Assembly (NCBI GenBank): GCA_963829055.1
Contig: CAWHHI010000019.1
Coordinates: 32,001 to 96,000 of the forward strand
Length of the DNA: 64,000 nucleotides
Source: an uncultured Gemmatimonadaceae bacterium
GTDB lineage: Bacteria > Gemmatimonadota > Gemmatimonadetes > Gemmatimonadales > Gemmatimonadaceae
Direction: 5' to 3'
Shown here: positions 200-64,000 of the stretch, piece after piece
Numbering within the stretch: the first letter of the stretch is position 1
Layout: every line of letters starts with the position of its first letter
Made by a program: the position numbers and the translations under genes
Notes under the pieces: generated by a model
What the model was told of the DNA's origin: nothing
Database searches by the model: none
What the model saw: only the letters and a program-made list of their open reading frames with translations

Positions 200-272
200 G
201 ATTGTTCCTCTAAGTAGTCGCAGCCTGGACAGCGCCGTTAGGCACCCAGATCCATCGCGGCCGTAGGACCGT

Positions 273-340
273 GGGAGTGGGGACTCGGGAGCTGGGGACC
301 CGTGATAATGCCGAGTCCCCAATCCGCAGTCCCTAGTCCC
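273..340. repeat. Inverted pair of degenerate heptamer tandem repeats (GGGGACT-like / AGTCCCC-like)
   Basis: gggagtggggactcgggagctggggacc ... gagtccccaatccgcagtccctagtccc in the rpsJ-rplC spacer. Confidence 0.75.
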
Positions 341-343
341 TCT

Positions 344-652
344 TCATTCCACTTTGATCTCGACGTCGACGCCCGCCGGTAAATCCAGCTTCGTCAACGC
401 GTCGACCGTCTGCGCGCGCGAATCGAGAATGTCGATCACTCGCTTGTGCGTCTTGAGCTCGAACTGCTCCCGCGACTTCTTGTCGACGTGCGGAGAGCGA
501 AGCACCGTCCACCGCTGCGTCTTCGTGGGCAGCGGAATCGGCCCCGACACCTGAGCGCCCGTCTTCTCCGCCGTCCGCACGATGTCCGCGGACGCCTGGT
601 CGATGACGGCGTGGTCGAACGCCTTGAGACGGATTCGAATTCGTCCAGCCAT
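344..652 (-). CDS. rpsJ: 30S ribosomal protein S10
   Basis: [31 protein letters not shown] motifs. Confidence 0.99.
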
Positions 653-660
653 GTTCGTTA

Positions 661-742
661 GGGACTGAGGGACTGGGGATAGGGAATGGGAACCGGGATC
701 TCGGAATCGCGATCGAGTCCCGAGTCCCCAGTCCCTAGTCCC
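661..742. repeat. Inverted pair of heptamer tandem repeats filling the tuf-rpsJ spacer
   Basis: gggactgagggactggggatagggaatgggaaccggga ... gagtcccgagtccccagtccctagtccc. Confidence 0.8.
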
Positions 743-1945
743 TTACTTCAGGATCTTCGTTACGACGCCAGCGCCGACCGTGCGTCCGCCCTCGCGGATC
801 GCGAAGCGGAGCTGCTCTTCCATGGCGATTGGCGTGATCAGCTCGATCACCATCTGGATGTTGTCGCCCGGCATGACCATCTCCGTCCCTTCCGGAAGCT
901 CGACCGATCCGGTCACGTCCGTGGTGCGGAAGTAGAACTGCGGGCGGTAGCCCTTGAAGAACGGCGTGTGGCGGCCGCCCTCTTCCTTCGTGAGGACGTA
1001 CACCTCGGCCTCGAACTTCGTGTGCGGAGGAATGGAACCCGGCTTGGCGAGCACCATACCGCGCTCGATTTCCTTCTTGTCGATACCGCGGAGCAGCAAG
1101 CCGACGTTGTCGCCCGCCTCACCGCTGTCGAGCAGCTTGCGGAACATCTCGACGCCCGTGACGACCGACTTCTTGGACGCCTCGAAACCCACCAGCTCGA
1201 CTTCCTCACCGACCTTCACGCGACCACGCTCGATACGGCCCGTCGCCACCGTGCCGCGACCCGTGATCGAGAACACGTCCTCGACCGGGAGCAGGAACGG
1301 CTTGTCGACTTCGCGAACCGGCTGCGGAATGAACGTGTCGAGCGCCTCGTACAACTCCTGGATCTTGGCGACCCACTGCGGATCGCCCTCGATCGCGCGG
1401 ATCGCGGCGCCACGAATGACCGGCGCGTCGTCGCCCGCGTAGTTGTACTTCGACAGCAGCTCACGCACTTCGAGCTCGACGAGGTCCAGCAGCTCGGCGT
1501 CCTCGACCAGGTCGCACTTGTTGAGGAACACGACGATACGCGGCACGTTCACCTGACGGGCGAGCAGGATGTGCTCGCGCGTCTGCGGCATCGGGCCGTC
1601 GACCGCGCTCACGACCAGGATCGCGCCGTCCATCTGCGCGGCACCCGTGATCATGTTCTTCACGTAGTCGGCGTGCCCTGGGCAGTCGACGTGCGCGTAA
1701 TGGCGGTTCGGCGTTTCGTATTCGACGTGGCTCGTCGCGATCGTCAGGATCTTCGTGGCATCACGACGTCCCTGCGACGCCGACGCTTTCGCGACTTCGT
1801 CGTACGAGATGTACTTGGTGCCGTATCCCTTGTCCGCCGAGATCTTCGTCAGGGCCGCCGTCAACGTCGTCTTTCCATGGTCGACGTGGCCAATCGTGCC
1901 GACGTTTACGTGCGGCTTCGTCCGCTCGAACTTTGCCTTAGCCAT
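743..1945 (-). CDS. tuf: Elongation factor Tu (fusA-linked copy)
   Basis: [25 protein letters not shown]; 400 aa; downstream of fusA. Confidence 0.99.
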
Positions 1946-1978
1946 TGTAGTGCTTCCTCTGAGAGTGTAACCCGAGGC

Positions 1979-4105
<2,127 letters not shown>

Positions 4106-4515
4106 ATCTGCAGACTGTTCGTCGTCGCTTCTTCTATCAGAAACTCGCGCTTGCGCAGCGAGCGGGTCTTCAATCAACAAAAACGCGGGTGGACCAGGCG
4201 TCCCTTAAACAGGGACCGGTATCCATCCGCCACCGCCGGGTGTACCCGCACTGAAGCACGGGTGGGGACCCAAGGCGCGCCAGTCGCTCTCTGGTCGAGA
4301 GATCCGTCGCAACGACTTCGCTACTGCGAAGGCCTTCGCTCGGGACTGACTGACGTCAAATTGTTCTGCGTCGGTGATCCAGGAACAGCGTCGCACTCGG
4401 TGCGAATGCCGTCGGCTCGACAACCTCGTCGGCGCGCAGCTCGCCGACCTTCGTGCTTCCGACACTCACTTCGCGCGAGACATTCTGCCCGAAGAAATAG
4501 TGCTGGAGCCGGGTA

Positions 4516-4543
4516 AATGTAGTCCCGCTAAGGGGGAAGTCAA
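4516..4543 (-). promoter_or_regulatory. Putative sigma70 promoter for fusA-tuf-rpsJ-rplC
   Basis: TTGACT (4543-4538), 16-nt spacer, TACATT (4521-4516) on minus strand, about 410 nt upstream of the fusA start. Confidence 0.55.
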
Positions 4544-4606
4544 TGCCACAGCACGGCGTATCTCAGCCGCGTGCAGGGGATCGCCACTGCCGCATCGACA
4601 CCGCAT

Positions 4607-5413
4607 CTAGTACTGCGATAGCGATCCCGCTCGTCGCGCATAACGAAATGCCCAGCGCAGCGCGACTACCCCGATCACAGCGTACGCCGCCGTCAGCGCA
4701 ATAAGCTGCACAAGGTCGCCGGTAACCGAGCTCAGGGGATACCCGAGTAGCAGCGTCTGCCGTAGCGCGCGCAACCCCGGCGTGAGCGGCAGCCACTCCG
4801 CCAGCGGTGCGACGGCCGCCGGCAACACGGACGTCGGGAAGTACACGCCCCCCAACAACGTCGACAGCACCAGCATTCCCTGCGGAATCGCGGCGTTGGT
4901 GCGGAACGACACGACCAGTGCGGCGGCGACCAAGCCGACTCCGACATACGCGACGAGGACCGCGACCAGGATGATCAACGCCTCGGGCAGCCGCAGCCAG
5001 TGAACGTCCACGCCCAACAACACCCCGGCGAGCATCAGCAGCACCACGCGCGCCGTCGCCCAGGCGAACGCGTACCCGGTCTGGCCGGCGAGCAGCGCCG
5101 GCAACGACGTCGGGGTCACCAGCAGCGCTTCGAAGAACCCGCTCGACAGCCCGCCGCTCACCGCCAATGCGAACGACGACAGCGCGGGCGAGACGAACGT
5201 CAGCAGCGCCGTTCCGAGGAGCACGAAGCCGAGATACTCTCGCCCTTCTTTCGCGATCACGTCTGCCATGAACGGCTGGAGCGCGTTCGCCAAGAAGTAG
5301 ACCGGAACGATCGTCACCAGCAGCGAGGCGAACGAAAGCACGAAGGAGACGCGGTAACTCTTGGCGGTACGCCACGAGGCACGCGTCAACGCCAGCGCGG
5401 CGCGGGCGCTCAT
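4607..5413 (-). CDS. ABC-2 type exporter permease
   Basis: Hydrophobic ~268 aa starting MSARAALAL, with LGGVYFP and WLPLT motifs; ATG overlaps the ATPase stop (ATGA at 5410-5413). Confidence 0.85.
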   Translation of the reverse strand: MSARAALALTRASWRTAKSYRVSFVLSFASLLVTIVPVYFLANALQPFMADVIAKEGREYLGFVLLGTALLTFVSPALSSFALAVSGGLSSGFFEALLVTPTSLPALLAGQTGYAFAWATARVVLLMLAGVLLGVDVHWLRLPEALIILVAVLVAYVGVGLVAAALVVSFRTNAAIPQGMLVLSTLLGGVYFPTSVLPAAVAPLAEWLPLTPGLRALRQTLLLGYPLSSVTGDLVQLIALTAAYAVIGVVALRWAFRYARRAGSLSQY

Positions 5414-6442
5414 CGACGCCCACTCCTGCCAATCGCTCGCTCGATGATCTCGCGCGAGTGGCGCAACGACACGCTCGAATCTCGCGATGGGCATCCCGGC
5501 CGCGATGAGCGTGGCGAGCATCTCACGAGCGGCGTCATCGCCGCCGTCGACTTCGACATCCACACGCCACCACTTTCCGCCGTCCGAGCGGACGGCGACA
5601 CGCCGCGCTTTGCCGGCCGCGACCAGCTCTTCCAACGCGGAGTGATTCGGCTCGAGCGTCCACGCGGAGTAGCGAGAACCGAGCAGCGACGCTGCCAGCG
5701 CCGGGGTGCTCCCAGTCGCCGCCACTCGGCCACGATTCATCACGACGACGCGGTCGCATAGCTCGAAGGCTTCCTCGCTCCGGTGCGTCGCCACGAGCAC
5801 AGCACAGCCGCGCCGGCCGGCGAGCTCCTCGCGAAGAAACGAACGAAAGGCGTGCGCCGCCGTCGGGTCGAGGCTGCGCGTCGGCTCATCGAGCAGCAAC
5901 ACACGTGGGTGACCGAGCAACGCGCGCGCGACGAGCAGCCGCTGCATCATGCCGGCTGAGAACTGGCCGACCATTTTGCGACCGGCGTCGGCCAGACCTA
6001 CGACGTCGAGTGCATCCGCGACCCGCGTATCCGTGTCGCGTGCGGGTAACGGCAGGAGCGCCGCGAACAGCTCGAGATTCTCCCGAGCGGATAGGCGCCA
6101 GTAGAGACTACGTTCGTTGGCCAACACCAATGCAATCATCTTGCGAACGCTGGCTGCTTCGTCCACGACATCGTATCCGGCAACCGTGGCAGAACCCCGG
6201 TCCGGCGTGATGAGCGTCGCCAGGATCTTGAGAAGCGTCGTCTTCCCTGCCCCGTTGGGCCCGAGTAGTCCGACGAACTCACCGGCGAACACTTCGAGCG
6301 AAACGTCCGCAATGGCGGGCGACGGCGGGCCGCCCATAGGGCGGCGCAGCACGTCCACCAGCGATCGGGCGGTCGGAAACTGTTTCCACAGATCGACCAC
6401 CCGGATCAGCGGTTCGTCGTTAGGCGCGGAAACCGCCGTCAT
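5410..6442 (-). CDS. ABC exporter ATP-binding subunit (apparent +1 frameshift near 5452 creates a false fusion with the permease)
   Basis: GPNGAGKTT, FSAGMMQR, LLLDEPT; removing one base gives ...PLAEIIERAIGRSGRR* ending on the permease ATG. Confidence 0.85.
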
Positions 6443-6720
6443 GACGCCGCGGCCATGGCCCGCGGGTCCTGTGAGGACCGGTGCCAAGCGATGAACGTGG
6501 CCGCGACCCGGTCCAGCGTCGTTAGGTCGCGACGGACTTCGGCTGCGTACACGGGAACGGCCGCCGTCATCCCGCTGCCCGGCAAGCGGGTACGGTCGTC
6601 GCTGCAACGGCGTGCGGCGTTTCGACATGCCAGACTGGAGCGCTGCTTCGCAGCCTGGGCGAGCTCGAGAAGGTCGAAGTCACAGTCGAGTCGAAATCCG
6701 AACGCAGCGTATCTAGCCAC
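6439..6720 (-). pseudogene. Short ORF resembling the joined N- and C-termini of an HPr-kinase-like protein of PqqD/lasso clusters (internal part missing)
   Basis: N-term ARYAAFGFRLDCDFDLLEL and C-term VPVYAAEVRRDLTTLDRVAATFIAWH resemble those kinase termini from memory; no P-loop; stop overlaps the ABC ATG. Confidence 0.4.
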
Positions 6721-6949
6721 GGCACCCAGTAAGGAAATGCTCTCTCGGAATACACTGCGGGAACGTGGCTCCGCACGAATCGATTTCTGATCGCGCACCG
6801 CCGCTCCAGGTGGCAACGGCGAGACCACGCCGCGAATCGCCCCCAACTTAGCCGGCACGTCTCGGCACCGTAGGCTTCGAACCTCCAGTGTGGCGACGAG
6901 CGATAGAGACCGTCCAGGCAGACGCGGCGTGGAAATGGCAGCGCTCGAT

Positions 6950-7402
6950 TCAGCTTCGTTGGTGCACGTCCAGATCTGTCAGCGGCACGAACGACCCAAC
7001 GTGCTCATCGACGTCGGCCAGCGTTTCGCCGGCCAACTCGACCCACGCGTGCGCGAGGAATTGCCCGCCGGCGCGGCGCACACCGACACGCACGACAGCA
7101 CCATCGATCCCACGGTCGGCCAACATCCGTGACAAAGCCATGGATCGCACGAGGCACTGAGGACGGAACACCCCGAATCGCGCAGCTCGCATGACCGCCA
7201 GTGCGAGCCTACGCGCTTCCGCCAACCGTCGCGGGTCGGAATCCTTTGCCGCCGTCGCAGGCGTCGCCAAGGAGCCGACCGGCTCCCGTCGAAGCTTTCC
7301 CTGTGCGACGAGCAAGGCCCACTGTGCCTGGAACAGCTCGCGCCACTCGGCAACAGAGAGTGTCGACAGCTTACGCGCGATGTGCGCAGGCGAAGGAGCC
7401 AC
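6950..7402 (-). CDS. Lasso peptide biosynthesis B2-type leader peptidase (transglutaminase-like)
   Basis: QCLVRSMAL (catalytic Cys), VRVGVRR, AHAWVE (catalytic His); adjacent to PqqD. Confidence 0.88.
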   Translation of the reverse strand: MAPSPAHIARKLSTLSVAEWRELFQAQWALLVAQGKLRREPVGSLATPATAAKDSDPRRLAEARRLALAVMRAARFGVFRPQCLVRSMALSRMLADRGIDGAVVRVGVRRAGGQFLAHAWVELAGETLADVDEHVGSFVPLTDLDVHQRS

Positions 7403-7408
7403 TGATCG

Positions 7409-7714
7409 TCAGGTCGAGGCCGCGACGACCAACCCGCTAGCGATCAGCGCGTGGAGAAATTCCTGGGCGTCCATGCGGATCTGTTCGGCGCCGGCGTCCG
7501 GATACTTCTGCTCCAGCGCGGTACACAACTCTCCAAACGTGCTGGAGAGCGGCGGCAGCAGCGCCCAGATTTGCGCGCCGACCGGGTTCACACCGAAGTA
7601 CACCTCGTCGGCGGTGGACAGCAGCACGCCACCTTCGTCGAGCTCCTTGAAGATGGCGGCGGGGCTGGGGTGCGGCAGGGGGTAGTCGGCGCTGAGAGCA
7701 GTGGATTCAGGCAC
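7409..7714 (-). CDS. PqqD-family RiPP recognition element (lasso B1-like)
   Basis: ~101 aa: ELDEGGVLL..EVYFGVNPVGAQIWALL..LEQKYPDA..IRMDAQEFLHALIASGLV, a typical PqqD/RRE pattern; GTG start at 7714. Confidence 0.88.
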   Translation of the reverse strand: MPESTALSADYPLPHPSPAAIFKELDEGGVLLSTADEVYFGVNPVGAQIWALLPPLSSTFGELCTALEQKYPDAGAEQIRMDAQEFLHALIASGLVVAAST

Positions 7715-7926
7715 GGATCGGGAGTGGCGATGATGAGTCTGCGCAACGACTGCTGCCGGTGACCGACACGAGCGTCGATGACCAGACGGACAGCCAACCA
7801 ATTGCAGTGTCGACGATTCGCCGGACATCCGGCGTAGCCCGCGACGACAAGCAACGTATCGATGGACGTCGGGGGTGCACAATTCACGCCCTCAACGACC
7901 TCGGCCTGAGCATCGGCTGAACGCAG

Positions 7927-7960
7927 CGCGCCCCGCCGGTCTCGAGACCGGCGGGGCGCG
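7927..7960. terminator. Perfect 34-bp GC-rich palindrome downstream of rpsG (possible terminator); a second hairpin lies at 7965-7995
   Basis: cgcgccccgccggtctc|gagaccggcggggcgcg; no clear U-tract. Confidence 0.55.
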
Positions 7961-7998
7961 GAGTACAGGACCGGCGGGGGGCCGGACGGTCCTGTGTA

Positions 7999-8465
7999 CT
8001 ACCAGCGATAGTGGGCGAACGCCTTGTTGGCTTCGGCCATGCGGTGCGTGTCTTCCTTCTTCTTCACCGCGTTGCCCTCGCCCTTCGACGCCGCGATGAC
8101 TTCAGCCGCGAGCTTCTCGGCCATGGACTTCTCGTTGCGATCGCGCGAGTAGCCGATAAGCCAGCGCATGGCGAGCGCGGTACGGCGCTCTGGACGGACT
8201 TCGACCGGCACCTGATACGTGGCGCCGCCAACACGTCGGCTCTTGACCTCGACCACAGGCTTCAGGTTCGCGAGCGCCTGCTTGAATACGTTCACGCCAG
8301 GCTGACTGGTGCGAGACTCGACGAGGTCCATCGCGCCGTAGAACACGCGCTCGGCCGTCGACTTCTTGCCCTGCAGCATGATGGCGTTGATGAACTTCGA
8401 AACGGTCTGGCTGTCGTAGCGCGCATCGGGTAGTACGGGGCGCTTGACCGACTTTTTGCGACGGC

Positions 8466-8469
<4 letters not shown>
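7999..8469 (-). CDS. rpsG: 30S ribosomal protein S7
   Basis: [26 protein letters not shown]. Confidence 0.99.
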
Positions 8470-8861
<392 letters not shown>

Positions 8862-8916
8862 ACCCTCGAGGTCTCGCTGACGCACTCGCCCGTATTTTCG
8901 GGCGAGACAGACTCGC

Positions 8917-8945
8917 ATAATATCGGCGAAGTCAACATGCGTCAA
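8917..8945 (-). promoter_or_regulatory. Sigma70-type promoter of rpsL-rpsG
   Basis: TTGACG, 17-nt spacer, TATTAT on minus strand; leader hairpin ctcgcccg-tatttt-cgggcgag at 8885-8906. Confidence 0.7.
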
Positions 8946-8981
8946 GGCGTTGGGCACGCTGTCCGGGCACTGGAAGGCACC

Positions 8982-10443
8982 TCACAAGGCCTTCGCCAGT
9001 GCTGACGAACCGGCAAGCGCGGGCAACGCGTCGCGAGCCCGAACGCCCGCCTCGAACGCACCGAGGAGGTGGGCGATGCTGTTGGCATAGTAGCTCACCA
9101 GCGGCCGGCCCCGTGTCAGTACGAGGTACCCGTTGCCCTCGCGGATCAGCACGCGGCGCATCGTCAGCATCCGATCGGCTCGATCGAACGTCTCCTCGAT
9201 GGACCGATCTGCGCGCAGGACGCGCGCGTTGAGCTCGACGAGGACGTCCCGCATGTCGCGCATCCGCTCCAGTAGCCGATCGCGCGGAATGTAGTCAGCA
9301 TCGAAGCTCTGAATGGCGGCGCAGGCCAGCGGAACAGGCGTCACTGGTATCAGCTCGGCAATGCGGCCCAGGACGTCGTCAACGAGCTGTTGCACGCGGC
9401 CCAGTCGTTCGCTGCGCTCGAGCGCGAAGAACTCCGTTCCATCCGCGCGTGTCGACGCGAGCCAATCGCTCGCTCGGATGGGCCGTCCGATCGTGACCGC
9501 CGCGCGTCCATAACGCTTCCAGCGGCCGGCGCCCAGTCGCGCGAGGTTCCAGCCGACGTACCGCACCACCTCGCTCAACTGGGTGAGGCGGGGCGTGCGA
9601 GCGCCAGACTCCCGCTTCGCCAATTCGCGCAGCAACGACCTGTCTTCGAGCACGCGATCGTAGTTCAGGGCGACCGGGATGATGACCAGTCGCCGCTCGA
9701 AATCCGGATCACGCGCCACGCCGAGCACATAGTCGATGAGACCGACTTTCCCGTGCGCGGAGCTTTCCGTCGCGAGTGAGCCCGCCTTCGGGAAAGACTC
9801 CCTGCGTGACCCCGTTGCGCGTGATGAGCTGGACGTACTGCTCGAGCACCGTGTGGTAGAGCGGCTCGCGATACCGTCGTCGAATGAAATACGAGCCGAA
9901 GCTCTTGAACACGTACTCCAGCGGGAACGCGCGCGCCCATTCGCCCACCGCATACGAGATCGAGACGTCTCCCGCGAGCACGTAGGCGAGCAGTACGTAG
10001 TCAGCGTTCGACCGGTGGTTGGCCAGGTAGAGAACCACGGCGTCGCGGGGAAGCTCATCGAGCTCGCTCAACGCCTGGTAGTCGACGCTTACCTTGTACA
10101 GCATGTTCAGCGTCGCACGACTCGCCGCGTACCCGAACTTGTAGTACGCGAGGATGTTGAAAAACGGGACGATCTCGTCGATGTACTGCCTGACGAGTCG
10201 CCACGCTTCGTCATCGCTCAGGCCCTGCTCGCTCGCGTGCCGCCTGACCGCCTCCGCGATGACGCCGTTACCGAGTAGCGTATCGCGGATATAGCCTTTT
10301 CGCGTCAGCTTGAAGCGATTGACGCGTGCGCCAAAGCGATGCACGACGCGCACGGTCGCACGGTCCGCCCAGCGCCGCGCGAGCCAGAGCGCGACGAGCC
10401 CCGCGAGCGGCAGCGAGAGCAGGACGATCGTCAGCGTGAGCAC
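8982..10443 (-). CDS. Glycerol-3-phosphate/lysophospholipid acyltransferase (PlsB/PlsC family), apparent +1 frameshift near 9753
   Basis: NHRSNADY (HX4D), FPEGGLTRDGKL in ORF 9709-10443; continues as GKVGLIDY..IIPVALNYDRV in ORF 8982-10058. Confidence 0.8.
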
Positions 10444-10551
10444 AGGCCAAACGTCCGTGGCCCTGCGTCCGCGGTCAAGCCGGTGTTGACGGCGCGTGCG
10501 CGCGTGCCATGTTGAAGCGCCCGCATCTCACACCGCCCGTGACCGAGGACA

Positions 10552-11462: not shown

Positions 11463-11507
11463 GCACTCTGCTCGGCGCTGTCGCGAACATGTCGCTCGTG
11501 GATGACA

Positions 11508-11543
11508 GAAACCCCTGGGAGGCCAAAGCCTCCCAGGGGTTTC
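11508..11543. terminator. Bidirectional intrinsic terminator between rpoC and the convergent gene
   Basis: GAAACCCCTGGGAGGC-CAAA-GCCTCCCAGGGGTTTC, a perfect 16-bp stem. Confidence 0.85.
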
Positions 11544-11589
11544 GTTGTTTCGGTTCCCCGTTACCGGGTCCCGGTTCCCGCTCGTTCTA

Positions 11590-15915
<4,326 letters not shown>

Positions 15916-15918
15916 CGC

Positions 15919-20524
<4,606 letters not shown>

Positions 20525-42346: not shown

Positions 42347-42349
42347 GCC

Positions 42350-44962: not shown

Positions 44963-44967
44963 AAGCG

Positions 44968-45280: not shown

Positions 45281-45285
45281 ACGTC

Positions 45286-48896: not shown

Positions 48897-48930
48897 AGCT
48901 ACCCCCTGGCGGCGTCCGCCAGTTACGCGT

Positions 48931-49152: not shown

Positions 49153-49182
49153 ACGATGAAAGGAATGCAGACAGAGCGCCGG

Positions 49183-52843: not shown

Positions 52844-52897
52844 GCGCGGAAACTAGCGGACGGGTGCTGCTGCCCGGAAGCGCGTACCGGTACCTCG

Positions 52898-53953
52898 CTA
52901 GGCCGCCAGCAGGTCCTCGCGACGCTCGCGCGCGTGGCCAACCTCGCGACGACGACGGTCGGGAAAGTAGCGATCGAGAAACGCGAGCAGCGCGCGCTCT
53001 TCAGGCGTGTGATCGGCGACTTTTCGTCGAGCGGTCGTCCCACGTGCGGTCCTCGCGGGTTCGATCGTCACGCCGGCGTCGATGTACCGGGCGATCACGA
53101 GCGGGTGGACATACGACGCGCGGCAGATCGCAGGCGTGTTCCCCAACTCGGCGGCGACGAGACGCGCCGCGAGCGCGACGTTACGCGCGGCCTCACGCCC
53201 ATTCGCCCCCGGCCCGATGTCTCCGAGCACGGTCGCCATGCGCAGCGTGCCGCCCCACGTGCGGAAGTCCTTCGCCGTGTAGCGCGCCGACCCGAGCGAT
53301 CGCAGGTAGTCGTTCACGTCCTGCGCGGTCAGATCGACCCAGCGATTGCCCTCGTGGTAGCGAAACAGTCGAGGGCCCGGCGTCTTCATGAGTCGCCCGA
53401 TCACGCGCGCGAGTCCGCGATCGAAGATGACCTGCCGTTGGCGGATCGATCCCTTGCCTGTGTACTCGAACTGGAGCCGTTCGCCGCGCACCGAAACGTG
53501 CGATTTGCGGAGCGTCGTCAGCCCGAACGTCCCGTTGTCGCGCTCGTACCGCTCGTTGCCCACGCGGAAGAACGCTTCGCCGATCAGCCGGACGGCAGCC
53601 GCCGCGACGGCCGTTCGCGTGAGCTCGCGAGCGTCCAGGTCTCGCGCGACGCGGCGACGGATCGCGGGCAGGTCATGACCCATGCGACGAACGCGATGAT
53701 ACTTGCGCAGTTGGCCCCGCTCGACGGCGCGGTCATGGTAGCGATACTGTCGCCGTCCGCGGGCGTCGAAGCCCCATGCCTGCACGGAAGCGGTCGCGCT
53801 CGCGGCAATGCGCACGTCGCGCCACGCTGGTGGAATGCGCAGCCGCTGTATTCGGTCCAGTGTCGCGCGCTCACGTACGACCCGCCCTGCGTGGTCGACG
53901 TACGTGAATCCTTTTTTCGGCGCGCCCCGCCGAGTGATCCACTTGTCGCCCAT
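52898..53953 (-). CDS. DNA topoisomerase IB (bacterial, poxvirus-like)
   Basis: IPPAW, GRRQYRY, FRVGNERY, KDFRTWGGT, LGNTPAICRASYV. Confidence 0.9.
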   Translation of the reverse strand: MGDKWITRRGAPKKGFTYVDHAGRVVRERATLDRIQRLRIPPAWRDVRIAASATASVQAWGFDARGRRQYRYHDRAVERGQLRKYHRVRRMGHDLPAIRRRVARDLDARELTRTAVAAAAVRLIGEAFFRVGNERYERDNGTFGLTTLRKSHVSVRGERLQFEYTGKGSIRQRQVIFDRGLARVIGRLMKTPGPRLFRYHEGNRWVDLTAQDVNDYLRSLGSARYTAKDFRTWGGTLRMATVLGDIGPGANGREAARNVALAARLVAAELGNTPAICRASYVHPLVIARYIDAGVTIEPARTARGTTARRKVADHTPEERALLAFLDRYFPDRRRREVGHARERREDLLAA

Positions 53954-54056
53954 ATGCGTCGAGCGAAGGCAAGTTCAGGTCCAGTTCCTTACATTTGAAA
54001 ACCGCGTTCGGCCCTCGCCACGTTTCCGGCGCCCCAACCTTCGACGCCTGTCCTGC

Positions 54057-54836
54057 ATGCCATACTCTGCGATCGAGCTCTCCGTTGTCGACCGCGTCGC
54101 CACGCTGACCGTCAATCGACCCGACAAGCTCAACGCGCTCAACGCAGCGACCATCGGCGAGCTCGGCGACGCGATCGACGAGATCCGTCAGCGCGATGAC
54201 ATTGGCGGTGCGATTCTCACCGGAGCCGGCCGTGCGTTCGTCGCCGGCGCCGACATCAGCGAGCTGGCGGCGCAGACTCCCATGCAGGCGAAGCAGCGTG
54301 CGCTCAGGGGTCAGCAGATTTTCCGCCGGTTCGAGACGTCACCAAAGCCGGTGATCGCCGCCGTGAATGGCTTCGCGCTCGGTGGTGGCTGCGAGCTCGC
54401 GATGTCCTGCCACCTGCGTATTGCGAGTGAGGCGGCAAAGTTCGGTCAGCCGGAGGTCAAGCTCGGCATCTGTCCCGGTTACGGCGGAACGCAGCGGCTG
54501 CCACGCCTCGTCGGAATGGGACGCGCGCTCCAGCTGTTGATGACAGGCGAGATGATCGACGCGGCCGAAGCGTTCCGGATCGGACTCGTCAATCGAGTCG
54601 TGCCGGCCGCCGAACTGCTGACCGCCGCCGACGCCCTGCTCCGCCAGATGCTCGGGAACGGTCCGCTCGCGCTTGCGTCGTGTATCGAAGCGGTGGTTCG
54701 CGGAACCGAGACGTCGTTGGAAGACGGTCTCAACCTCGAGGCGAATCACTTCGCTCTGCTGTCGGGGTCGCAGGACATGGCGGAAGGCACGCGTGCGTTC
54801 CTCGAGAAGCGCGCGCCGAATTTCGCCGGTCGATGA
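54057..54836 (+). CDS. Enoyl-CoA hydratase (crotonase family)
   Basis: NRPDKLNAL, AFVAGADI, ALGGGCELA, GQPEV..GGTQRLPRL. Confidence 0.92.
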   Translation: MPYSAIELSVVDRVATLTVNRPDKLNALNAATIGELGDAIDEIRQRDDIGGAILTGAGRAFVAGADISELAAQTPMQAKQRALRGQQIFRRFETSPKPVIAAVNGFALGGGCELAMSCHLRIASEAAKFGQPEVKLGICPGYGGTQRLPRLVGMGRALQLLMTGEMIDAAEAFRIGLVNRVVPAAELLTAADALLRQMLGNGPLALASCIEAVVRGTETSLEDGLNLEANHFALLSGSQDMAEGTRAFLEKRAPNFAGR

Positions 54837-54896
54837 ACCAGCGCCACCCGACAGCGGCCGACGGGTTGTCCTGACGTGGGATTCGACGTGTCGGGC

Positions 54897-56147
54897 ATGA
54901 CGACCGACGAGACGGCGGGACCAGTCATCCTCGAGACAATTTCGCTGCGCGATTTCAGAAATCTGGAACGCGTGCGACTCGACGTGCCGAGTGAAGGCAT
55001 GGCGATCGTCGGTGACAATGGTCATGGGAAGACGAATTTTCTCGAGGCGATCTACTACCTGCAGTTGCTGCGGTCGGCCCGCGGCGCGCGCGACCAGGAC
55101 GTCGTTCGGTTCGGCGCACAGGGATTTCACATCGCCGCCGAGGCAACCGTCGGGCGGCGCCGTACGCTGAGCGCCGCGTTCCAGCGGGCCGGCAAGCGAA
55201 AGAAGGTCGTCGTCGATGGCACCGAACCGTCGCGCCTGAGCGACGCGTTAGGCTCGTTGCCGTCCGTCATGTTCTCGCCGCGCGACGTCGACCTCGTGGC
55301 CGGCGCGCCGAGCGAGCGGCGCCGTTTCCTGGATGTGGCGCTGGCCCTGACCTCCCGCCGTTACCTCTCGGCATTGCAGCAATACCGCGCGGCGCTGGTA
55401 AGGCGGAACGCGGCGCTGAGAGACGCAGCGCGGAAGGGCGAAGCCGCGGGCGGCATCGCGCGGGCAACCGTCTGGGAGCCAGCCCTCGCGGAACATGGGG
55501 CTGTTCTTTGGGCCGGTCGCGTGGCGTGGGTGGAGCGGGTAGCGGATGATTTCGCGAAGCTCTGTGCGACCATCGGCGAGCGTGGTGACGCTCGGCTTCG
55601 ATACGTGACGTCTTCGACGACTGCGGCCATATCTGCAGGCATGTCCGTACCTGACCTCGCGAACCGACTCGCCGACTCGCTGGCCGCGCATCGCACAGCG
55701 GATCTCCGTCGTGGGCTCACGCATGCCGGACCCCATCGCGACGACCTCGAGCTCATGCTCGACAGCCATCCCCTTCGTGGGTTCGGCTCTGCCGGTCAGC
55801 AGCGCACCGCATCCATCGCGCTCCGTCTGCTCGAAGCGGCTACACTTCGTGGCGTAGGTCACGCTCCGCTCGTCCTGCTCGATGACCCCTTCGCCGAGCT
55901 CGATGTGCGACGCGCCAACAGGATTCTGGAACTGCTCGGGAGCAGCGGCGTGCCGCATCAGACGATTCTCGCCGTGCCTCGCGCCGCTGACATCCCGGCG
56001 GGCATGACATCGCTTCCGCGATTCCATGTCATGGACGGAACGGTATCGGCTGCCGGCGCGTCGGATGGGCCCGCGACGACGTCAGGCGGTGTTGCAACAC
56101 TGGAGGCGCAGGCAGCAGCCATGCACGAATCACACGAGCAATTGTGA
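54897..56147 (+). CDS. recF: DNA replication/repair protein RecF
   Basis: FRNL, GDNGHGKTN, GPHRDD, SAGQQR, LLDDPFAELD. Confidence 0.95.
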   Translation: MTTDETAGPVILETISLRDFRNLERVRLDVPSEGMAIVGDNGHGKTNFLEAIYYLQLLRSARGARDQDVVRFGAQGFHIAAEATVGRRRTLSAAFQRAGKRKKVVVDGTEPSRLSDALGSLPSVMFSPRDVDLVAGAPSERRRFLDVALALTSRRYLSALQQYRAALVRRNAALRDAARKGEAAGGIARATVWEPALAEHGAVLWAGRVAWVERVADDFAKLCATIGERGDARLRYVTSSTTAAISAGMSVPDLANRLADSLAAHRTADLRRGLTHAGPHRDDLELMLDSHPLRGFGSAGQQRTASIALRLLEAATLRGVGHAPLVLLDDPFAELDVRRANRILELLGSSGVPHQTILAVPRAADIPAGMTSLPRFHVMDGTVSAAGASDGPATTSGGVATLEAQAAAMHESHEQL

Positions 56148-56458
56148 GCGGCCCTCCACGGAAGACCCGGCCACAGCCGATCTCCGCCGCGATCTCGCAG
56201 TTCCTCGAGCAGTCGGGGCTGCGTGACCGTGTCGAGCAGGCAACGGTAGTCCCCGAGTGGCCCACGCTGGTTGGTGCCCAGATCTCGGCGGTTACTGAGC
56301 CGTTGTCAGTGACCGCGGACGGCGTGCTGTTCGTCGCCGTCCGGACGCACGCCTGGATGTCGGAGCTTTCGCTGCTCGAGCCCGAGTTGCTGGCGTCGCT
56401 GAACCGCAATGCTGATCGACCGCCCGTGCGGAAGATTCGGTGGCAATTGATGCGCTGA
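56144..56458 (+). CDS. DUF721/DciA family protein
   Basis: WPTLVG..TEP..GVLFV..WMSEL; typical recF-DUF721-gyrB order. Confidence 0.85.
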   Translation: MSGPPRKTRPQPISAAISQFLEQSGLRDRVEQATVVPEWPTLVGAQISAVTEPLSVTADGVLFVAVRTHAWMSELSLLEPELLASLNRNADRPPVRKIRWQLMR

Positions 56459-56548
56459 GGTTGCGGCCGCGAACAGGCTCGTAATTTGTTGAATGAATAG
56501 GACTTAGCTGAAGGCAGGAATCTTGCTTTCGGGGCGTCCGACGGTTAG

Positions 56549-58570
<2,022 letters not shown>

Positions 58571-58589
58571 CGCGTCGATTCAGGCACAA

Positions 58590-58634
58590 GAACAAACCCC
58601 TCGCGAGCCGCTGCGGCTCGCGAGGGGTTTGTTC
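58590..58634. terminator. Bidirectional intrinsic terminator
   Basis: Perfect 21-bp stem GAACAAACCCCTCGCGAGCCG-CTG-CGGCTCGCGAGGGGTTTGTTC between convergent genes. Confidence 0.88.
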
Positions 58635-58649
58635 GTAAGGCCGCTGAAC

Positions 58650-61467
58650 CTAACGCGGTGTTGCGCTGCGGCGAACCGCCGCCATCGCGCGACCATAGTC
58701 ATACTCACTCTGAATAGTGCCGGCCGCGCGCTCGAACGCGGGTCGCAGATTGTCGTCGATGGTGATGGCCTTCGCAAACTCCACCAGCAGGGACGCACAC
58801 TCATAGTCCGAATCGATCTTTGCGGCCGACGCGAGGACGGCCTTCGCGAGACCCGGCGTGAGGTTGCCGCGAGAGATCAGCGGCGACAATGCCCGATGGT
58901 GTTCGTAGTCGGACCCGATCTTGTCGGCTGCGGCGAAGTATGCGTCGTTCGTCGATGCGTCCAGCCCGCCGGTCTTCGCCACCTGGATCAGAAACTCCGC
59001 GAGCTCGTAGTCGGAGGAGATACGACGAGCGTCCTCGAGGAGAGCGCGTGTCACCGACGGAGTCAGATTGCCTCCAGCGAGGATCGCGGTCAGCACACGG
59101 CGATGCTCGTAGTCCGACTCGATCGAGCCAACCGCCTTGATGTAGACCGGGCGCGTATCGTCGTTCATCGCATACCGCTTGGAGACGCCAATCAGCAGCT
59201 CGGCCAGCTCATAGTCGGAACCGATCGTGCTCGCTGCCTCCAGGAGCGCCTGCACGGTCGCCGGTGCAAGACGATCCCGCTGCAGCAACGCAGTGAGTGC
59301 CCGACGGCGCTCATAGTCGGAGTCGATCTTCTTCGTCGCCGACACGAATGCGGCATGCGAGTCGTCACCGAACGCGTCGAGCTTCGCGACGGCAACGAGC
59401 AGTTCCGCGAGCTCGTAATCGGACGACATCTGGCTCCCTGCCTGCTCCACCACGCGCCGGACCTGTGCCCGATCGAGTTGGCGCATCGAGAGCAGCTTCG
59501 TGTAGTAACGACGCCGCGCATAGTCGCCACTGAGCAGCGTGATCTCTTGTAGCACGCCGTCGACGCCGGCGCGCTCGAGAATCGCGGGCACTCGCTGATC
59601 CACCGCAAACGCCGTCTGGCGCTCGAGCGTGATGATCGCATCGGCAAACCACGCGCCCGCCGCCGCGTCGTACTCGGCCTTCGCACCATTGACGAAGTAC
59701 GTGCGTTCCAGCGTCCCCGGGCTCGTCGGGCGAATCACGAGGCGCTTCGTGTCGTCCCCATCATGCTGCTCGATCGTAAACGACGCGCCGCTCGACATCG
59801 ATTCGATGTCGGTGAGATCGCGGTTGAACTTGAACTCTCCACGCGCATCCACTTCGAACGAGCAGTCGCCCTCGGACCACCGCACCTTCCACCGCTTCGA
59901 CCCGTCGTCGGTCGTGATCGAGGTAGAGCGCGAATGCTCTCCACCAGCAGCCTTGGCGCGATCGCACGGTGCTGTACGTGCGGCGGGTAACAGCGCCGTC
60001 TCCGCGGGGGCCGCCGCGACCGTGGCGAGTGCCGGCGCCGCCGTGGAAGCCGTGCTCGCATCGATCGAGACGACGCTCACTCGCGGCACTACCGTCTCGA
60101 TCGCGTCGCTCGCTGGCGATGCCGGCAGCGCGCCAGGTGCGGCGGTGCCACCAATGCCAGACACCGTTGTGCCATTGCGTGCCGGCCTGGGTTGCGCCGC
60201 AACCGCCGGGGTTGCCGCGCGCGCGGTCGCCGTTCTCGGTGTGACTGATGCAATGCTGGCCACGACAACCGAGGCGGCTACTACCGCTTGTGCCGTCGTG
60301 AGACGCGAGACGCGGCCCCGCGGACGCCGGTCGTCGAGAACGGCCATGAGCCGCCCAGCCATCTGGGACGGTCGCGCCATCGCCAGCCCGCCTAACGCGG
60401 CAGCGCCGATGACACGTGTCGATCGTGCGACGCGCAACAGATAGTCGGCGTACTCGGACGCCTTCGAACCGGCGCGCAGTACCTCGTCGTCGCAGGCTCG
60501 CTCGCGCTCAGCGCGAAGCTGCGCCGCCGCCATCCACGCGAGTGGATTGAACCAGTGAACCGCGCACGCCAACTGCGCGGTGAGCTGCGTCAGGCAATCG
60601 TACCGGCGAACGTGCGCCAGCTCGTGACGCAACACGTCGAGTCGCTGCTCGATCGTGGAATCGAAGTCATCCGCCGGCAGCAACACGATCGGGCGAAAGA
60701 CGCCCCACGTCATGGGCATGACCGCCTCGTCGGACTCGATGAAGCGGACGCGGCGACGGACGTCGAGCTCGCGCATCGCTGAAGGCACGAGGAGCGCCCA
60801 ACGGCCACCGCGCATGTCGCGCGCACGTCGCGCCACCTTCGACAGCCTGACCATGCCGACGACACACGGGATGATCGACACGATCGCGCCGAGCGCCCAC
60901 ACGACGACCAGCCACGGGATGAGCGATGGAGTCGCGGGCACAGTCTGCACGACCGCGCTCGCGGTCGCTGGCTCGCCATCGCCCCCGGCCGAGCTGATGC
61001 TCCGCGACTCGCACCACGTATGCATCGCGTTCCAGGCGCAGTACCGCCGTCGTCGCGGGCGAGGACGCCATGCGCGTAACGGCGCGCCGTCGCGGCACCG
61101 CTGTCCCGCCGACCGACACGGTACTTGGAGCGCGCGGGGCCAGCGACAACACGATGTTCGACGACGCCCCGCTGAGCGCAGGCGAAACCGTGACGGCATC
61201 CAGGCGCGGAGTCTCATTCGACAACCAGCGTGGCACCGCGATGCCCCAACGCGGAACGATCGCGGCGATCGCCGGCGCGACAAGCGCACCGGTGAGTGAC
61301 AGAGTCCAGATGAGGTGTCGCGTCGCCGCCGACGCGGCGCGCGCGACGAGCGCACACAGGGCGCCGACCATCAGGATGATCATTCCCTTTGCAAACGCGC
61401 CGATCAGCAGCGGCGCCACGCCGACGACGCTGGCGGCGTCGAGAAAGTCGTTGACATGCATGGTCAC
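58650..61467 (-). CDS. BlaR1-like M56 metallopeptidase with a C-terminal SDYE-repeat domain (frameshifted at about 61000-61130)
   Basis: SAATRHLIW in ORF 60667-61467; PMTWG, LRHELAH, WFNPLAW, ERACDD in ORF 58650-61355. Confidence 0.88.
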
Positions 61468-61853
61468 TTTCCCTCTCGTTTGGCCTTTTCGATCAACGCC
61501 GCGAGCTGTTCGGCTTCGTTGGCCGAGAGCTGGGACTCGGACATGTCGAGCAGGGCGGCAACGGCTTGCGTGGACGATCCATCAAAGAACGTCTTCACGA
61601 GCTGCCGGAGCGCCGACTGCCGCGCCGCGGTGCGTGGCACGACTGGTGAGTAGACATAACGCGGCCCATCCGCACGGTGTGTCAGGTGCCCCTTGTCCTC
61701 GAGGATCCGCAGCATCGCACGAACTGCGGAATAGCTCGGCGGGTCAGGCAGCCGCTCGAGCACGTCGGCTGCCGAGGCCGATCGCAGACCGTAGACGATC
61801 TCCATGATCTGCCGTTCGCGACGACTGAGCTGCGGCGGTTTTTTCTCGGCCAT
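61464..61853 (-). CDS. BlaI/MecI/CopY family repressor
   Basis: LSRRERQIM, YSAVRAMLRILEDKG, FFDGS. Confidence 0.93.
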   Translation of the reverse strand: MAEKKPPQLSRRERQIMEIVYGLRSASAADVLERLPDPPSYSAVRAMLRILEDKGHLTHRADGPRYVYSPVVPRTAARQSALRQLVKTFFDGSSTQAVAALLDMSESQLSANEAEQLAALIEKAKREGK

Positions 61854-61912
61854 CGAATGCGGGGTGGAGGTCAGGCAGGCGCGCGGCTGCTCAGGAACGG
61901 CACGATCGCGTA

Positions 61913-61947
61913 TGCTAACAATTTAGCAGTGTGTTAAATCTTTAGCA
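61913..61947. promoter_or_regulatory. Tandem palindromic operators upstream of the BlaI-like gene
   Basis: TGCTAA-CAAT-TTAGCA (61913-61928) and TGTTAA-ATCT-TTAGCA (61932-61947); TTGACA -35 box on minus strand at 61967-61962. Confidence 0.75.
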
Positions 61948-62166
61948 TCGGAAATCGCGGCTGTCAAGGGACGCTTCCCCGTCCGGCTGGCGCCGCGACC
62001 GAGAGGTGTGCGCGCGTTGCGCCTTCACGCATGAGCGCCGGCGAGTGACGGGCTGGACTGCCGACTGACGCCGTTATGACGCCTGAATGACTGTCAGCTA
62101 ACCGATGGCGCGTAGCGTGTCGCGTCGTGTCGGTTTCGGCGTACCTCTCTTCAACGAGGGAATCTC

Positions 62167-62695
62167 ATGAACGCCTCGCGCATCATCATCGCCTGGACAG
62201 TCCTGGGACTCTGTGCCTGCTCGGACAACCCAGCATCACCGCGTGCTCCCCTGTCGCCGGTAACGGAAGGCCCGAAGTTCGCCGCGCTCGCCTCTACCAC
62301 CAGCGACGTGTTCCCCGTCGAGATCGCGCAGTTCGTTCCGTGTGCGAATGGCGGCGCCGGCGAAATCGTGGTCGTGTCCGGCAACCTCCACCAGGTGCTG
62401 AGCACGGTCATCAGTGCGAACGGGAACATCACCGTGAGAAGCCATTTTCAGCCGCAGGGCATCTCCGGCGTCGGCCTAACGACAGGTGACAAATACCAGG
62501 CGACCGGGGTGACCGAATTCTCGGACACCTTCGGGGCGCCGTTCCCGGTCACATCGACGTTCGTCAACAACTTCCGTTTCATCGGCGCGGGCGCTGGGAA
62601 CAATCTTCTGATCCACGAAGTAGCGCACCTGACGATCAATGCGAACGGCGTCGTGAGGGTGGACCGTGGACAACTTCAGCGAGGAATGTCGCTGA
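62167..62695 (+). CDS. Putative lipoprotein (apparent +1 frameshift near 62665)
   Basis: Lipobox-like LCACS; corrected tail VDVDNFSEECR* ends just before a palindrome. Confidence 0.6.
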
Positions 62696-62737
62696 AGGCA
62701 GACCACAGAACCGCAAACGCAGTCAACGAGCGCACTC

Positions 62738-62767
62738 AGCGGGAGGCCCGACGTCGGGCCTCCCGCT
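62738..62767. terminator. Perfect 30-bp palindrome, probable terminator
   Basis: AGCGGGAGGCCCGAC|GTCGGGCCTCCCGCT followed by cagctttt. Confidence 0.7.
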
Positions 62768-62805
62768 CAGCTTTTCACGCCGGCGACTGGCCGGCATTGC
62801 TACGC

Positions 62806-63069
62806 TCAGCCGTTCCGCTTGGACTCGTCGAACAGGATCTTCGCGTACGCGAGGTGAGCGGCAATGATCCCGAGCACAGGAATCGCCGCGCTGATCCAGG
62901 TCAGCGTCGCGTGGGTGGAGTCGATGCCGCCGGTTGACGTTGGACGCGACCCGAACGCGATGAGGGCATAGAGCCCGAGTACTCCGAATCCGACACCGAC
63001 CGCGCCGAGCGCGGCGAGCTTCGCGTACTTGCGAACCGATGGCGGTGTGCGAGTGGCAGGTGCAGTCAT
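62806..63069 (-). CDS. Small two-TM membrane protein
   Basis: Two hydrophobic stretches; co-oriented downstream of pdp. Confidence 0.55.
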   Translation of the reverse strand: MTAPATRTPPSVRKYAKLAALGAVGVGFGVLGLYALIAFGSRPTSTGGIDSTHATLTWISAAIPVLGIIAAHLAYAKILFDESKRNG

Positions 63070-63088
63070 TGTCGATAATCGATCGGGG

Positions 63089-64000
63089 TCAATCGTGTTC
63101 GAAGGATGTCACGCCGTTCGCCGTGACGCGATGAGAGATGAGCGGGAGCGGCAGCTCTGCCTCGTCGGCAATGGAGATCGCCTGTCTCAACGCCGCCAGT
63201 CCGGTCTCGACGCCCGCACGGTCGCGCGCGAACACCGTGGCGAGCGGCTCGCCTTGCTGCACGACGTCTCCCGGCTTCGCGGTGATGACGAATCCGACCG
63301 ATGGGTCGACGGTATCGTCCATTCGCGTTCGCCCGCCGCCTAACGCCGTGACGCCTCGGCCCACGACGCGCGGTTCGACGCGCGCGATGACGCCCGAGCG
63401 TGACGAGAGGAACAGTTCGCACGCGCGAGCCTGCGGCAGGACCGCCGGATCGTCCACGACGCCCGGGTTACCACCCTGGGCTTCGATGATCTCCTCGAAT
63501 TTCCGCGCCGCCTTGCCGCTGGAGATTGCGACCTCCATCGCGCGCCGCGCGGCGTCGCGGTTCGCGGCGACGCCGCCCACCACCAACATCTCCGCGCCTA
63601 ACGCGTACGTCACGCCGAGCACGTCCGGCGGTCCCTCGCCGCGCAGCGTATGGATGGCCTCCTCCACCTCCAGCGCGTTGCCGCACGCGCGACCGAGGGG
63701 CCGGTCCATCGCCGTGATGAGCGCGACGACGGTGCACCCGCGATCCTCGCCGAGGTTGATCATCGTCTGCGCGAGCTCGAGCTCGCGATCGAGGTCGGGG
63801 AGGAACGCCCCCGCGCCTCGCTTCACGTCGAGCACCAGCCCCGTGAGCCCTTCCGCGAGTTTCTTGCTCATGATGCTCGCGGCGATGAGCGGGACACTCT
63901 CCACCGTCGATGTCGCGTCTCGAAGCGCGTACATCTTGCGATCGGCGGGCGCGATCTCCGCACTCTGCCCGAGCATCGCGCACCCGATCCGCTCGATCTG
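63089..64000 (-). CDS. pdp: Pyrimidine-nucleoside/thymidine phosphorylase (C-terminal part; start lies outside window)
   Basis: PADRKMYALRD, SIMSKKLAEG, LDVKRGAGAF, GNALEV. Confidence 0.93.
   Translation of the reverse strand, partial: QIERIGCAMLGQSAEIAPADRKMYALRDATSTVESVPLIAASIMSKKLAEGLTGLVLDVKRGAGAFLPDLDRELELAQTMINLGEDRGCTVVALITAMDRPLGRACGNALEVEEAIHTLRGEGPPDVLGVTYALGAEMLVVGGVAANRDAARRAMEVAISSGKAARKFEEIIEAQGGNPGVVDDPAVLPQARACELFLSSRSGVIARVEPRVVGRGVTALGGGRTRMDDTVDPSVGFVITAKPGDVVQQGEPLATVFARDRAGVETGLAALRQAISIADEAELPLPLISHRVTANGVTSFEHD

Follow-up and report, generated by a model that had tools for sequence, protein, structure and literature searches.

The 64,000 nucleotides analysed here (positions 32,001 to 96,000 of contig CAWHHI010000019.1, assembly GCA_963829055.1; hereafter the window, GC 0.65) come from an uncultured Gemmatimonadaceae bacterium and raise the question of why one short asymmetric word, the heptamer CGTTAGG, is written into them so often. 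There are 45 copies in the window, where 100 dinucleotide shuffles gave a mean of 2.83 and a maximum of 7; 34 of the 45 are the octamer CGTTAGGC, 7 end in T and 4 in G. The word is real and strong, and it is apparently undescribed: we found no account of it in the searchable literature (supplementary oligomer tables could list it), as an earlier note on this DNA had supposed. The answer that we favour, tentatively and by analogy, is that CGTTAGGC may work most like the DNA uptake sequences (DUS) of Neisseriaceae and the uptake signal sequences (USS) of Pasteurellaceae, spread by uptake and recombination. Short-range exclusion between copies, occurrence in a second phylum and in phages, identity with the integron attC R box, and dialects all go beyond the earlier note. 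The copies, variants and individual sites in the window are as follows.

Plus strand, span 236..55252: 18 copies of CGTTAGG, at 236, 656, 3596, 6418, 6520, 10784, 11457, 18793, 33744, 34244, 38593, 41092, 43885, 45507, 50734, 51287, 51994 and 55246; 14 of the 18 are CGTTAGGC.
Minus strand, span 14039..63603: 27 copies of CGTTAGG (CCTAACG on the plus strand), at 14039, 17018, 17987, 20301, 22948, 29149, 29532, 30354, 32063, 34423, 35110, 35409, 36455, 37085, 38247, 39029, 43233, 46366, 47121, 47827, 50472, 57487, 58649, 60391, 62475, 63339 and 63597; 20 of the 27 are CGTTAGGC.
4638..4645, minus strand: variant CGTTATGC, of the same class as the main word in that it obeys its exclusion zone.
14039..14045, minus strand: rpoC KALGE site, also in G001, G005, G014 and L003; 0 differences in a short-read contig.
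14807..14813, minus strand: variant TGTTAGG(C), rpoC NLLGK; site also in G001, G005, G014 and L002.
17987..17993, minus strand: rpoB LALGA site, GCG TTA GGC; 0 differences in a short-read contig.
19281..19287, plus strand: variant TGTTAGG, rpoB APNK, directly after an assembly frameshift; the frame there is the correct rpoB frame.
20633..20639, plus strand: variant TGTTAGG.
29029..29035, minus strand: variant TGTTAGG(C), IVLGG context; site also in G014.
58649..58655, minus strand: copy making a TAG stop codon.

Every position that the earlier note had given for the 45 heptamers and for the four TGTTAGG/CCTAACA variants is exact, and so are its peptide contexts (NPLGV at 17018, GGLTR at 18793, DRLTK at 3596, THLTG at 57487, EDVRL at 37085, NLLGK at 14807 and APNK at 19281). 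Of its two TAG stops, that at 58649 stands, and the copy at 10784 reads as the TAA stop of a weakly called open reading frame (ORF). Genomes were tallied as motif-rich at 100 or more octamers per Mb. The LALGA site at 17987 recurs in each of the 5 further motif-rich genomes covering it (G004, G005, G014, L002, L003) and reads CTC GGC in all 7 motif-poor genomes shown, and the NLLGK site at 14807 has ordinary codons in all 6 motif-poor genomes shown with coverage.

The window lies in the genome G000 (7.78 Mb, 20 contigs), which named relatives of its ribosomal protein L1 place in Gemmatimonadaceae. There the octamer occurs 5,004 times against 102 expected under an order-2 Markov model (observed/expected ratio, O/E, 49.0) and the heptamer 6,391 times (O/E 25.7; 0.82/kb), with 0.64-1.09 heptamers per kb on every contig. 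The top over-represented words of lengths 5 to 9 all overlap CGTTAGGC. The sequence logo has the core GTTAGG, preceded by C (0.90) and followed by C (0.79), T (0.12) or G (0.07); the strong over-representation first reported for a heptamer holds, and the unit is an 8-mer with graded flanks. TGTTAGGC, CGTTAGGT, CGTTAGGG and CGTTATGC are enriched 8-17x. Among single-mismatch forms, flank variants and CGTTATGC stand at 2-17x and most core variants at 0.2-0.8, TA-containing words being generally rare in this genome. The profile is unchanged in the 60 bp past stop codons, free of codon constraint (408 copies vs about 12).

Within genes the word is written silently. Our coding and intergenic figures are approximate, as the home-made gene caller truncates starts and covers 73% of bases. 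The 5,925 confidently called coding sequences (CDS) of G000 contain 3,792 heptamers, spread over each of the four stop-free frames, whereas a genome-wide synonymous shuffle left 207-256 (n=5; about 16x fewer), codon usage taken from outside the word 145-179, and a within-gene shuffle 278-301 (n=3). No fewer than 1,787 of the 2,539 TTA codons (70%) lie inside the core, as do 206 of 1,562 TAG and 269 of 755 TAA stop codons. The word fills 1,097 of 1,788 P-N-[ADEGV] contexts and 1,500 of 5,393 [APST]-L-G contexts; Leu is written TTA in 45% of NCG-Leu-GGC contexts vs 0-0.3% of NCG-Leu-GAN/GCN. The codon-shuffle nulls and the TTA fraction support the earlier note's view that the word is written with rare codons in conserved genes.

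These results bear directly on the possibility that the word is a base-calling artefact or a by-product of codon usage, which we regard as refuted and practically inconceivable. The G000 assembly has many frameshifts, and these would speak for an artefact; those in rpoB, the methyltransferases and a FimT-like pilin are probably assembly errors. Short-read contigs, however, show 0 differences from the window across sites 14039 and 17987, three independent metagenome contigs with 98-99% nucleotide identity to G000 have 26 of 27 core sites in common with it, and the same sites recur in fragmented relatives. A codon by-product is contradicted by proteins that stay intact in four frames and by shuffles 13-26 fold lower than the observed count; observed/expected is far above 1 under both the Markov and the codon-shuffled nulls. 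One of the frameshifts, at 19329-19349 of the window, splits rpoB, which is a single open frame in G014.

Orthologous sites are common among motif-rich genomes and carry ordinary codons in motif-poor ones. Core sites of G000 are retained at 35/46 positions in G005, 29/49 in G001 and 21/38 in G002; between G000 and G005 only 53% of fourfold sites agree, and TTG codons are kept at 30/161. In 28 loci of motif-poor genomes not one site was found over 97,332 aligned codons, where G000 has 157. Part of this sharing may be convergence, as the word occupies 45-61% of its ideal contexts. Where orthologous sites disagree, the discordant sequence mostly lies two changes from the word, and intermediates are rare. 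A count in motif-poor genomes gave 0 copies vs 8.3 under the null; this apparent avoidance may reflect general avoidance of TAA, as CCT before AAG is also 0/881 in G000. Divergence from relatives did not change with distance from a site, and a rise in fourfold-site GC near the word (+1.9% within 30 bp) was discarded as not consistent against unfilled contexts.

The word is neutral in orientation. Relative to the replichores of G000 it occurs 1,699 vs 1,590 times (51.7% leading-like; Spearman p 0.052 with skew), and relative to the coding strand its heptamers number 1,973 vs 1,819. The earlier note's contrast of a mixed orientation with Chi and the FtsK orienting polar sequences (KOPS) is therefore borne out: GGGNAGGG (KOPS) words in the same windows are 77-80% polarised. 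Placement is permissive, at 1.92/kb between convergent genes, 0.32/kb between divergent genes and about 0.72/kb in CDS; density is highest after stops and between convergent genes, and on C16 it falls towards the terminus. Stretches of 9-16 kb over ordinary genes are free of the word, and the rRNA region checked has 0 core sites in 7.1 kb. Separately, the block C6:5440-55038 (L128-L130) of G000, 49.5 kb of housekeeping genes (trp, aro, def and ftsK-like by eye; GC 0.70) with many broken frames, has 0 octamers and is most likely foreign DNA that has been fused into this contig.

Copies exclude one another below about 300-500 bp. The raw pair correlation is 0.3 under 75 bp and has climbed back to 1 at 300-500 bp; clustering, by contrast, is what three control words show. 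Against an opportunity-matched null, in which sites were redistributed among the same peptide contexts (30 draws), the pair ratio is 0.11 at 8-50 bp, 0.26 at 50-100, 0.48 at 100-200, 0.81 at 200-300, 0.94 at 300-500 and 1.02 at 500-1000 bp. The probability that a context is filled climbs steadily with distance to the next site and is half-maximal near 200 bp. Exclusion is seen in all four orientation classes, and also in G014 and other members of the genus; a small phage sample has it at 50-200 bp and none under 50 bp. The functional class of the word is defined by which variants are excluded near it: CGTTATGC and TGTTAGGC are, but CGTTCGGC and CGTCAGGC tolerate its neighbourhood. No convincing helical periodicity or phasing was found in the pair distances of G000.

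A Chi-like or KOPS-like directional signal, serving a helicase-nuclease or a translocase, would account for an asymmetric octamer that lies in core genes and is carried by phages. We nevertheless consider it extremely unlikely. Besides the orientation counts, exclusion is not confined to co-oriented pairs, which largely refutes a directional signal, and an AddAB-type nuclease domain is present in 8/30 rich and 23/50 poor genomes and was not found in G014 or G251 (RecBC families were not searched). A dif-like site at C16:560790 of G000 lies exactly at the KOPS polarity flip; it is ordinary and unrelated to the word, and the idea of a XerC/D half-site was dropped.

The distribution of the word is patchy and graded. 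Motif-rich genomes make up 16/61 relatives, including all 7 of the genus, with G014 at 1,247/Mb, and 9/251 of a phylum sample, every one within the order Gemmatimonadales; none of the 81 genomes outside the order is motif-rich, all having <=15/Mb. (The tallies, and no other result, include the unpublished G013, G100, G138 and G214 as motif-poor rows.) The motif-rich genomes are scattered across three families, and density among relatives runs from <10 to 1,247/Mb. Lineages differ in their tolerance, that is, they have dialects: CGTTATGC vs CGTTAGGC is 13 vs 3,896 in G251 (0.3%) and 315 vs 345 in G048, and in G000 CGTTATGC amounts to 12% of the main word, while in G048, G093 and G021 the two are roughly as common as each other. 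Enriched words in rplA-region loci of other Gemmatimonadota (L007, L020, L049, L057, L060, L061, L115) were rejected as dialects; they are lineage-specific local tandem repeats of 7-9 bases between ribosomal-protein genes, some in inverted clusters.

The same word occurs in a second phylum. A two-copy scan of metagenome contigs gave at least 121 stretches, and the 63 of at least 2.5 kb that we examined were, among the matches listed, mostly contigs with G000-like proteins. Six contigs of GC 0.55-0.63 have 42 octamers in 49.7 kb (12 by construction) against 10 for controls, again among the matches listed. Named homologues place L559, L500 and L530 in Chthoniobacterales (Verrucomicrobiota); L561, L515 and L520 probably belong there too, judging by resemblance alone. 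The density for Chthoniobacterales rests on these six contigs, and the form of the word there is TCGTTAGGC. A plasmid search with a Chthoniobacterales protein returned nothing useful. Two further contigs stood apart: L531 (6 sites in 4.1 kb, GC 0.72, third-position GC 0.93-0.97) is motif-rich and unlike both known lineages, and the 3-kb L497 has 22 extra copies in a low-complexity TA-rich region of CTA, TAG and TAC words.

Phages carry the word as well. Three two-copy scans of viral contigs (117, 40 and 42 stretches) turned up chiefly pairs due to chance and arrays on one strand, along with carriers in which the word is dispersed. Counted whole, 7 of 9 viral records are motif-rich and 2 are not; the seven have 35 copies in 45.6 kb, 63 in 82.1 kb, 26 in 28.6 kb, 24 in 50.0 kb, 18 in 49.2 kb, 12 in 68.8 kb and 7 in 13.0 kb, with reversed-word controls of 0-4 in the first five. 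Density reaches about 900/Mb, the carriers are mutually unrelated, and silent coding of the word is the same as in G000. Five records were confirmed as phages by terminase, portal or capsid genes of different families, and integrases are present in 3 of five motif-rich phages; G291 (58% complete) has direct terminal repeats and no integrase was found in it. Prophage loci of motif-poor genomes have 0 octamers in 210 kb (13 loci). A lambda-like terminase is present in 1/32 rich and 10/48 poor genomes, a count confounded by assembly quality and not used. An unannotated protein at C11:166237-167937 of G000 has 42-52% matches in the unrelated motif-rich phages G285, G288 and G291. Viral contigs L281, L344, L287, L295 and L285 hold same-strand word arrays with 300-500 bp spacing, resembling cassette arrays, and L304 has an integrase match as well.

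Exclusion, placement and phages together bring in an alternative that is somewhat unlikely but deserves weight: that an intracellular sequence-specific protein, a nucleoid organiser or a sensor sparing DNA that carries the word, attaches to CGTTAGGC and acts on, or sits over, some hundreds of bases around it, which would select for dispersed sites in chromosome and phages. Exclusion over 100-300 bp in every orientation would fit a footprint, and the word avoids divergent promoter regions and the rRNA region checked. Phages at or above host density, G291 among them, are also consistent with such a protein, as phages over-represent the host's intracellular motif Chi (PMC3784561), and a horizontally moved gene would explain the two phyla. 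However, no such protein was identified, the pair distances are unphased, and the smooth range of densities and the 9-16 kb gaps are hard to square with an essential structural role.

A second alternative resembles cyanobacterial HIP1 (highly iterated palindrome 1): the word would be an asymmetric methylation target, created and kept by methyl-directed repair or methylation-dependent recombination. We think this unlikely. In its favour, G000 has a D12-class methyltransferase and, at C8:73551-79061 (L132), an Eco57I-type adenine methyltransferase of ~1,075 aa adjoining a SNF2-like helicase, a gene that is single-copy in 65/70 genomes, weak or missing in 3 outside the order and nearly confined to it, a range like that of the word; one-change intermediates are scarce, HIP1 overlaps methyltransferase sites (PMC4390886), and methylated HIP1 aids transformation (PMC13756078). 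The Eco57I-type gene is, however, equally present in motif-poor genomes, and it is vertically inherited, its tree following the families. With best PADLOC matches to type IIG and DrmMI/DrmD, it looks, together with the helicase, like a housekeeping system, and it was rejected as reader of the word. With 26 rich and 29 poor genomes aligned, no column tells the two groups apart better than 15 permutations do (0.45 vs up to 0.45; rows <600 aa and two intermediate genomes left out). The D12 gene was rejected likewise: G014, G135, G010 and the 3 rich f3 genomes all lack it, and many poor genomes have it. No m5C or beta-class methyltransferase or Vsr was found in G000, and graded flanks with tolerance of G or T resemble binding energy rather than an enzyme site. 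Of the three functions that the earlier note had offered, an uptake signal fits best, and the methyltransferase target is weakened, as neither G000 enzyme tracks the word across relatives.

The core-site consensus of the integron attC R box is GTTRRRY, and many of the few copies in motif-poor genomes are attC sites in same-strand arrays. Among 108 R boxes in 54 attC-like sites of these genomes, 40 are CGTTAGGC and 34 TGTTAGGC, and CGTTATGC and CGTTAGGT also occur; such a match is unlikely to be chance. It is very unlikely, though, that integrons act directly, with IntI or a derivative binding or writing the R-box sequence genome-wide. Those 74/108 boxes would speak for it, as would the scattered attC sites of G000 at C20:119000-209000 (L133), which have the word at both ends and lie with a divergent IntI (score 265.7, at the cut-off). 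Yet IntI exceeds the cut-off in 38/61 genomes, many of them motif-poor, and was not found in G002, G004, G010, G020 and G029. GTTAGAC makes up 14/108 R boxes and is nonetheless depleted genome-wide in G000 (24 copies, O/E 0.42). Only 7 attC candidates were found in G000 by a strict script, and 6 in C20:95-215 kb by a looser one, against thousands of single copies, which do not form the R''-L''-L'-R' hairpin flanking a cassette. We also know of no mechanism by which a tyrosine recombinase would write silent double substitutions. As IntI does not track the word and the tolerances differ, we treat the attC match as a clue to origin and not to mechanism. The divergent IntI of G000 appears to lack two residues that we take to be catalytic, and a second N-terminal integrase fragment lies at C4:2862-3170.

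The origin could still join with uptake in a single, frankly speculative and decidedly unlikely scenario. The word would be an uptake tag common to both phyla that started as the integron attC core. A surface receptor favouring CGTTAGGC would fish cassettes from soil DNA, and its bias would go on to imprint the word on chromosomes and prophages in any lineage with that receptor. Soil Gemmatimonadales and Chthoniobacterales bearing the word would then form a guild given preferentially to the exchange of short fragments.

The nulls, the neutral orientation and the conserved sites bear out a genome-wide DNA-level signal analogous to HIP1 or to uptake sequences, as first proposed. We think it quite conceivable, with doubt slightly prevailing, that CGTTAGGC is a tag on double-stranded DNA read either way round by a sequence-preferring protein. 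The cell would take up and recombine homologous DNA through a type IV pilus, ComEC and DprA, with the reader presumably on the pilus, and word-bearing fragments would enter more often. Silent changes creating the word would then spread and those destroying it be overwritten, by drive rather than by selection on an intracellular role, and prophages in such hosts would acquire the word too. A single copy per fragment would suffice and a second within a few hundred bases would add little, hence the exclusion zone. Biased uptake with recombination predicts neutral orientation, saturation with distance, graded preference, dialects, permissive placement and carriage by temperate phages. DUS are spaced about 1,150 nt apart, close to the 0.82 heptamers/kb of G000, and are "most frequent in permissive locations" (PMC2397512), and temperate phages of Pasteurellaceae accumulate USS, up to about 750/Mb (PMC6776037). 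G000 has pilMNOPQ, minor pilins, pilB/T/C, comEC, a ComEA-like hit, dprA and a FimT-like pilin with a basic C-terminus, the pilin labels being our presumption from sequence.

Several observations weigh against uptake. In a candidate screen, which was not unbiased, no tracking of the word was found for ComEC, DprA, ComEA-like, FimT-like pilin, the two methyltransferases, IntI, Ku, AddAB, beta and m5C methyltransferases or Vsr. ComEC (63/65), DprA (68/71) and the FimT-like pilin (31/34) occur as often in motif-poor genomes as in rich ones, and no feature separating rich from poor was seen by eye in 20 pilin ORFs (recovered from 30 loci; 4 wrong-frame or other pilins). Ku, a perfect match in 5 genomes, was dropped at 28/30 rich and 34/50 poor. 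Inverted terminator pairs like those of DUS/USS are missing: depletion is strongest for opposite pairs lying near each other (0.13-0.22 of expectation under 40 bp). Exclusion half-maximal near 200 bp is far below neisserial conversion fragments, 1.1-1.7 kb, and the uptake model must therefore assume short fragments. Most single-mismatch forms are depleted, in a genome where TA-containing words are rare in general, and this would differ from DUS/USS, whose one-off forms are over-represented (PMC1939737). The proteome effect in G000 is weak (PN[ADEGV] 59 vs 53 and [APST]LG 203 vs 247 in aligned motif-poor genomes); DUS/USS show a doubling (PMC2817400). It would be strange for a self tag to recur in two phyla, no copy lies in a 10.3-kb prophage contig from G033, a moderately rich host, and the phage hosts are presumed from flank preference and 42-61% protein matches to G000. 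Set against membership in the DUS/USS class are the short range of exclusion, the absence of terminator pairs, the depleted one-offs, the second phylum and the fact that no receptor tracks the word; these keep an intracellular reader in play.

A further feature of the window is a short palindromic repeat at about 25586-25696, with many copies in the genome and many matches in all five relatives searched. It adjoins a tRNA-sized conserved stretch, and the over-represented G000 words TGTCATCC and GGATGACA are related to it.

Sequence-biased uptake words have been described for two proteobacterial families. The word treated here is a third hyper-abundant one, in two abundant soil phyla and their phages; its gradient, from absent to >1,200/Mb, and its dialects make a natural experiment on spread by drive vs by selection, and whole-proteome phylogenetic profiling could name its reader. 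In practice it could serve as a host-range marker for uncultured phages, it flags foreign assembly segments such as the word-free block of G000, and it may help to transform soil bacteria that are otherwise hard to work with.

How, then, does the word compare with known systems? Like the modal R' and R'' boxes of the order, it reads CGTTAGGC with TGTTAGGC as variant; unlike them, the genome-wide copies occur singly, in genes and outside hairpins, keep apart at attC-like spacing and do not accept GTTAGAC. With Chi (RecBCD/AddAB) and KOPS it has in common an asymmetric octamer over-represented in the host and some phages (PMC3784561), and it differs in that it is not polarised with the replichore, uses rare codons and not common ones, shows exclusion whatever the orientation and has no AddAB link. 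HIP1 (GCGATCGC) is likewise a hyper-abundant octamer in genes, kept beyond codon choice, its function debated between chromosome structure, methylation and transformation (PMC5861425, PMC4390886, PMC13756078); it is, however, palindromic with known methyltransferase sites, whereas CGTTAGGC is asymmetric and no methyltransferase tracks it. From DUS (read by ComP in Neisseriaceae) and USS the word differs in sequence and phyla, in being 8 bp without flanking AT tracts or inverted terminator pairs, in its patchiness within an order and presence in a second phylum, and in its mostly depleted one-offs, strong short-range exclusion and weak proteome effect. It resembles them (PMC2397512, PMC6776037, PMC12616744) in being non-palindromic, present about once per kb and orientation-neutral, in lying in genes and permissive intergenic DNA, in species conservation, dialects and carriage by temperate phages, and in a host with competence machinery, which motif-poor genomes have equally.

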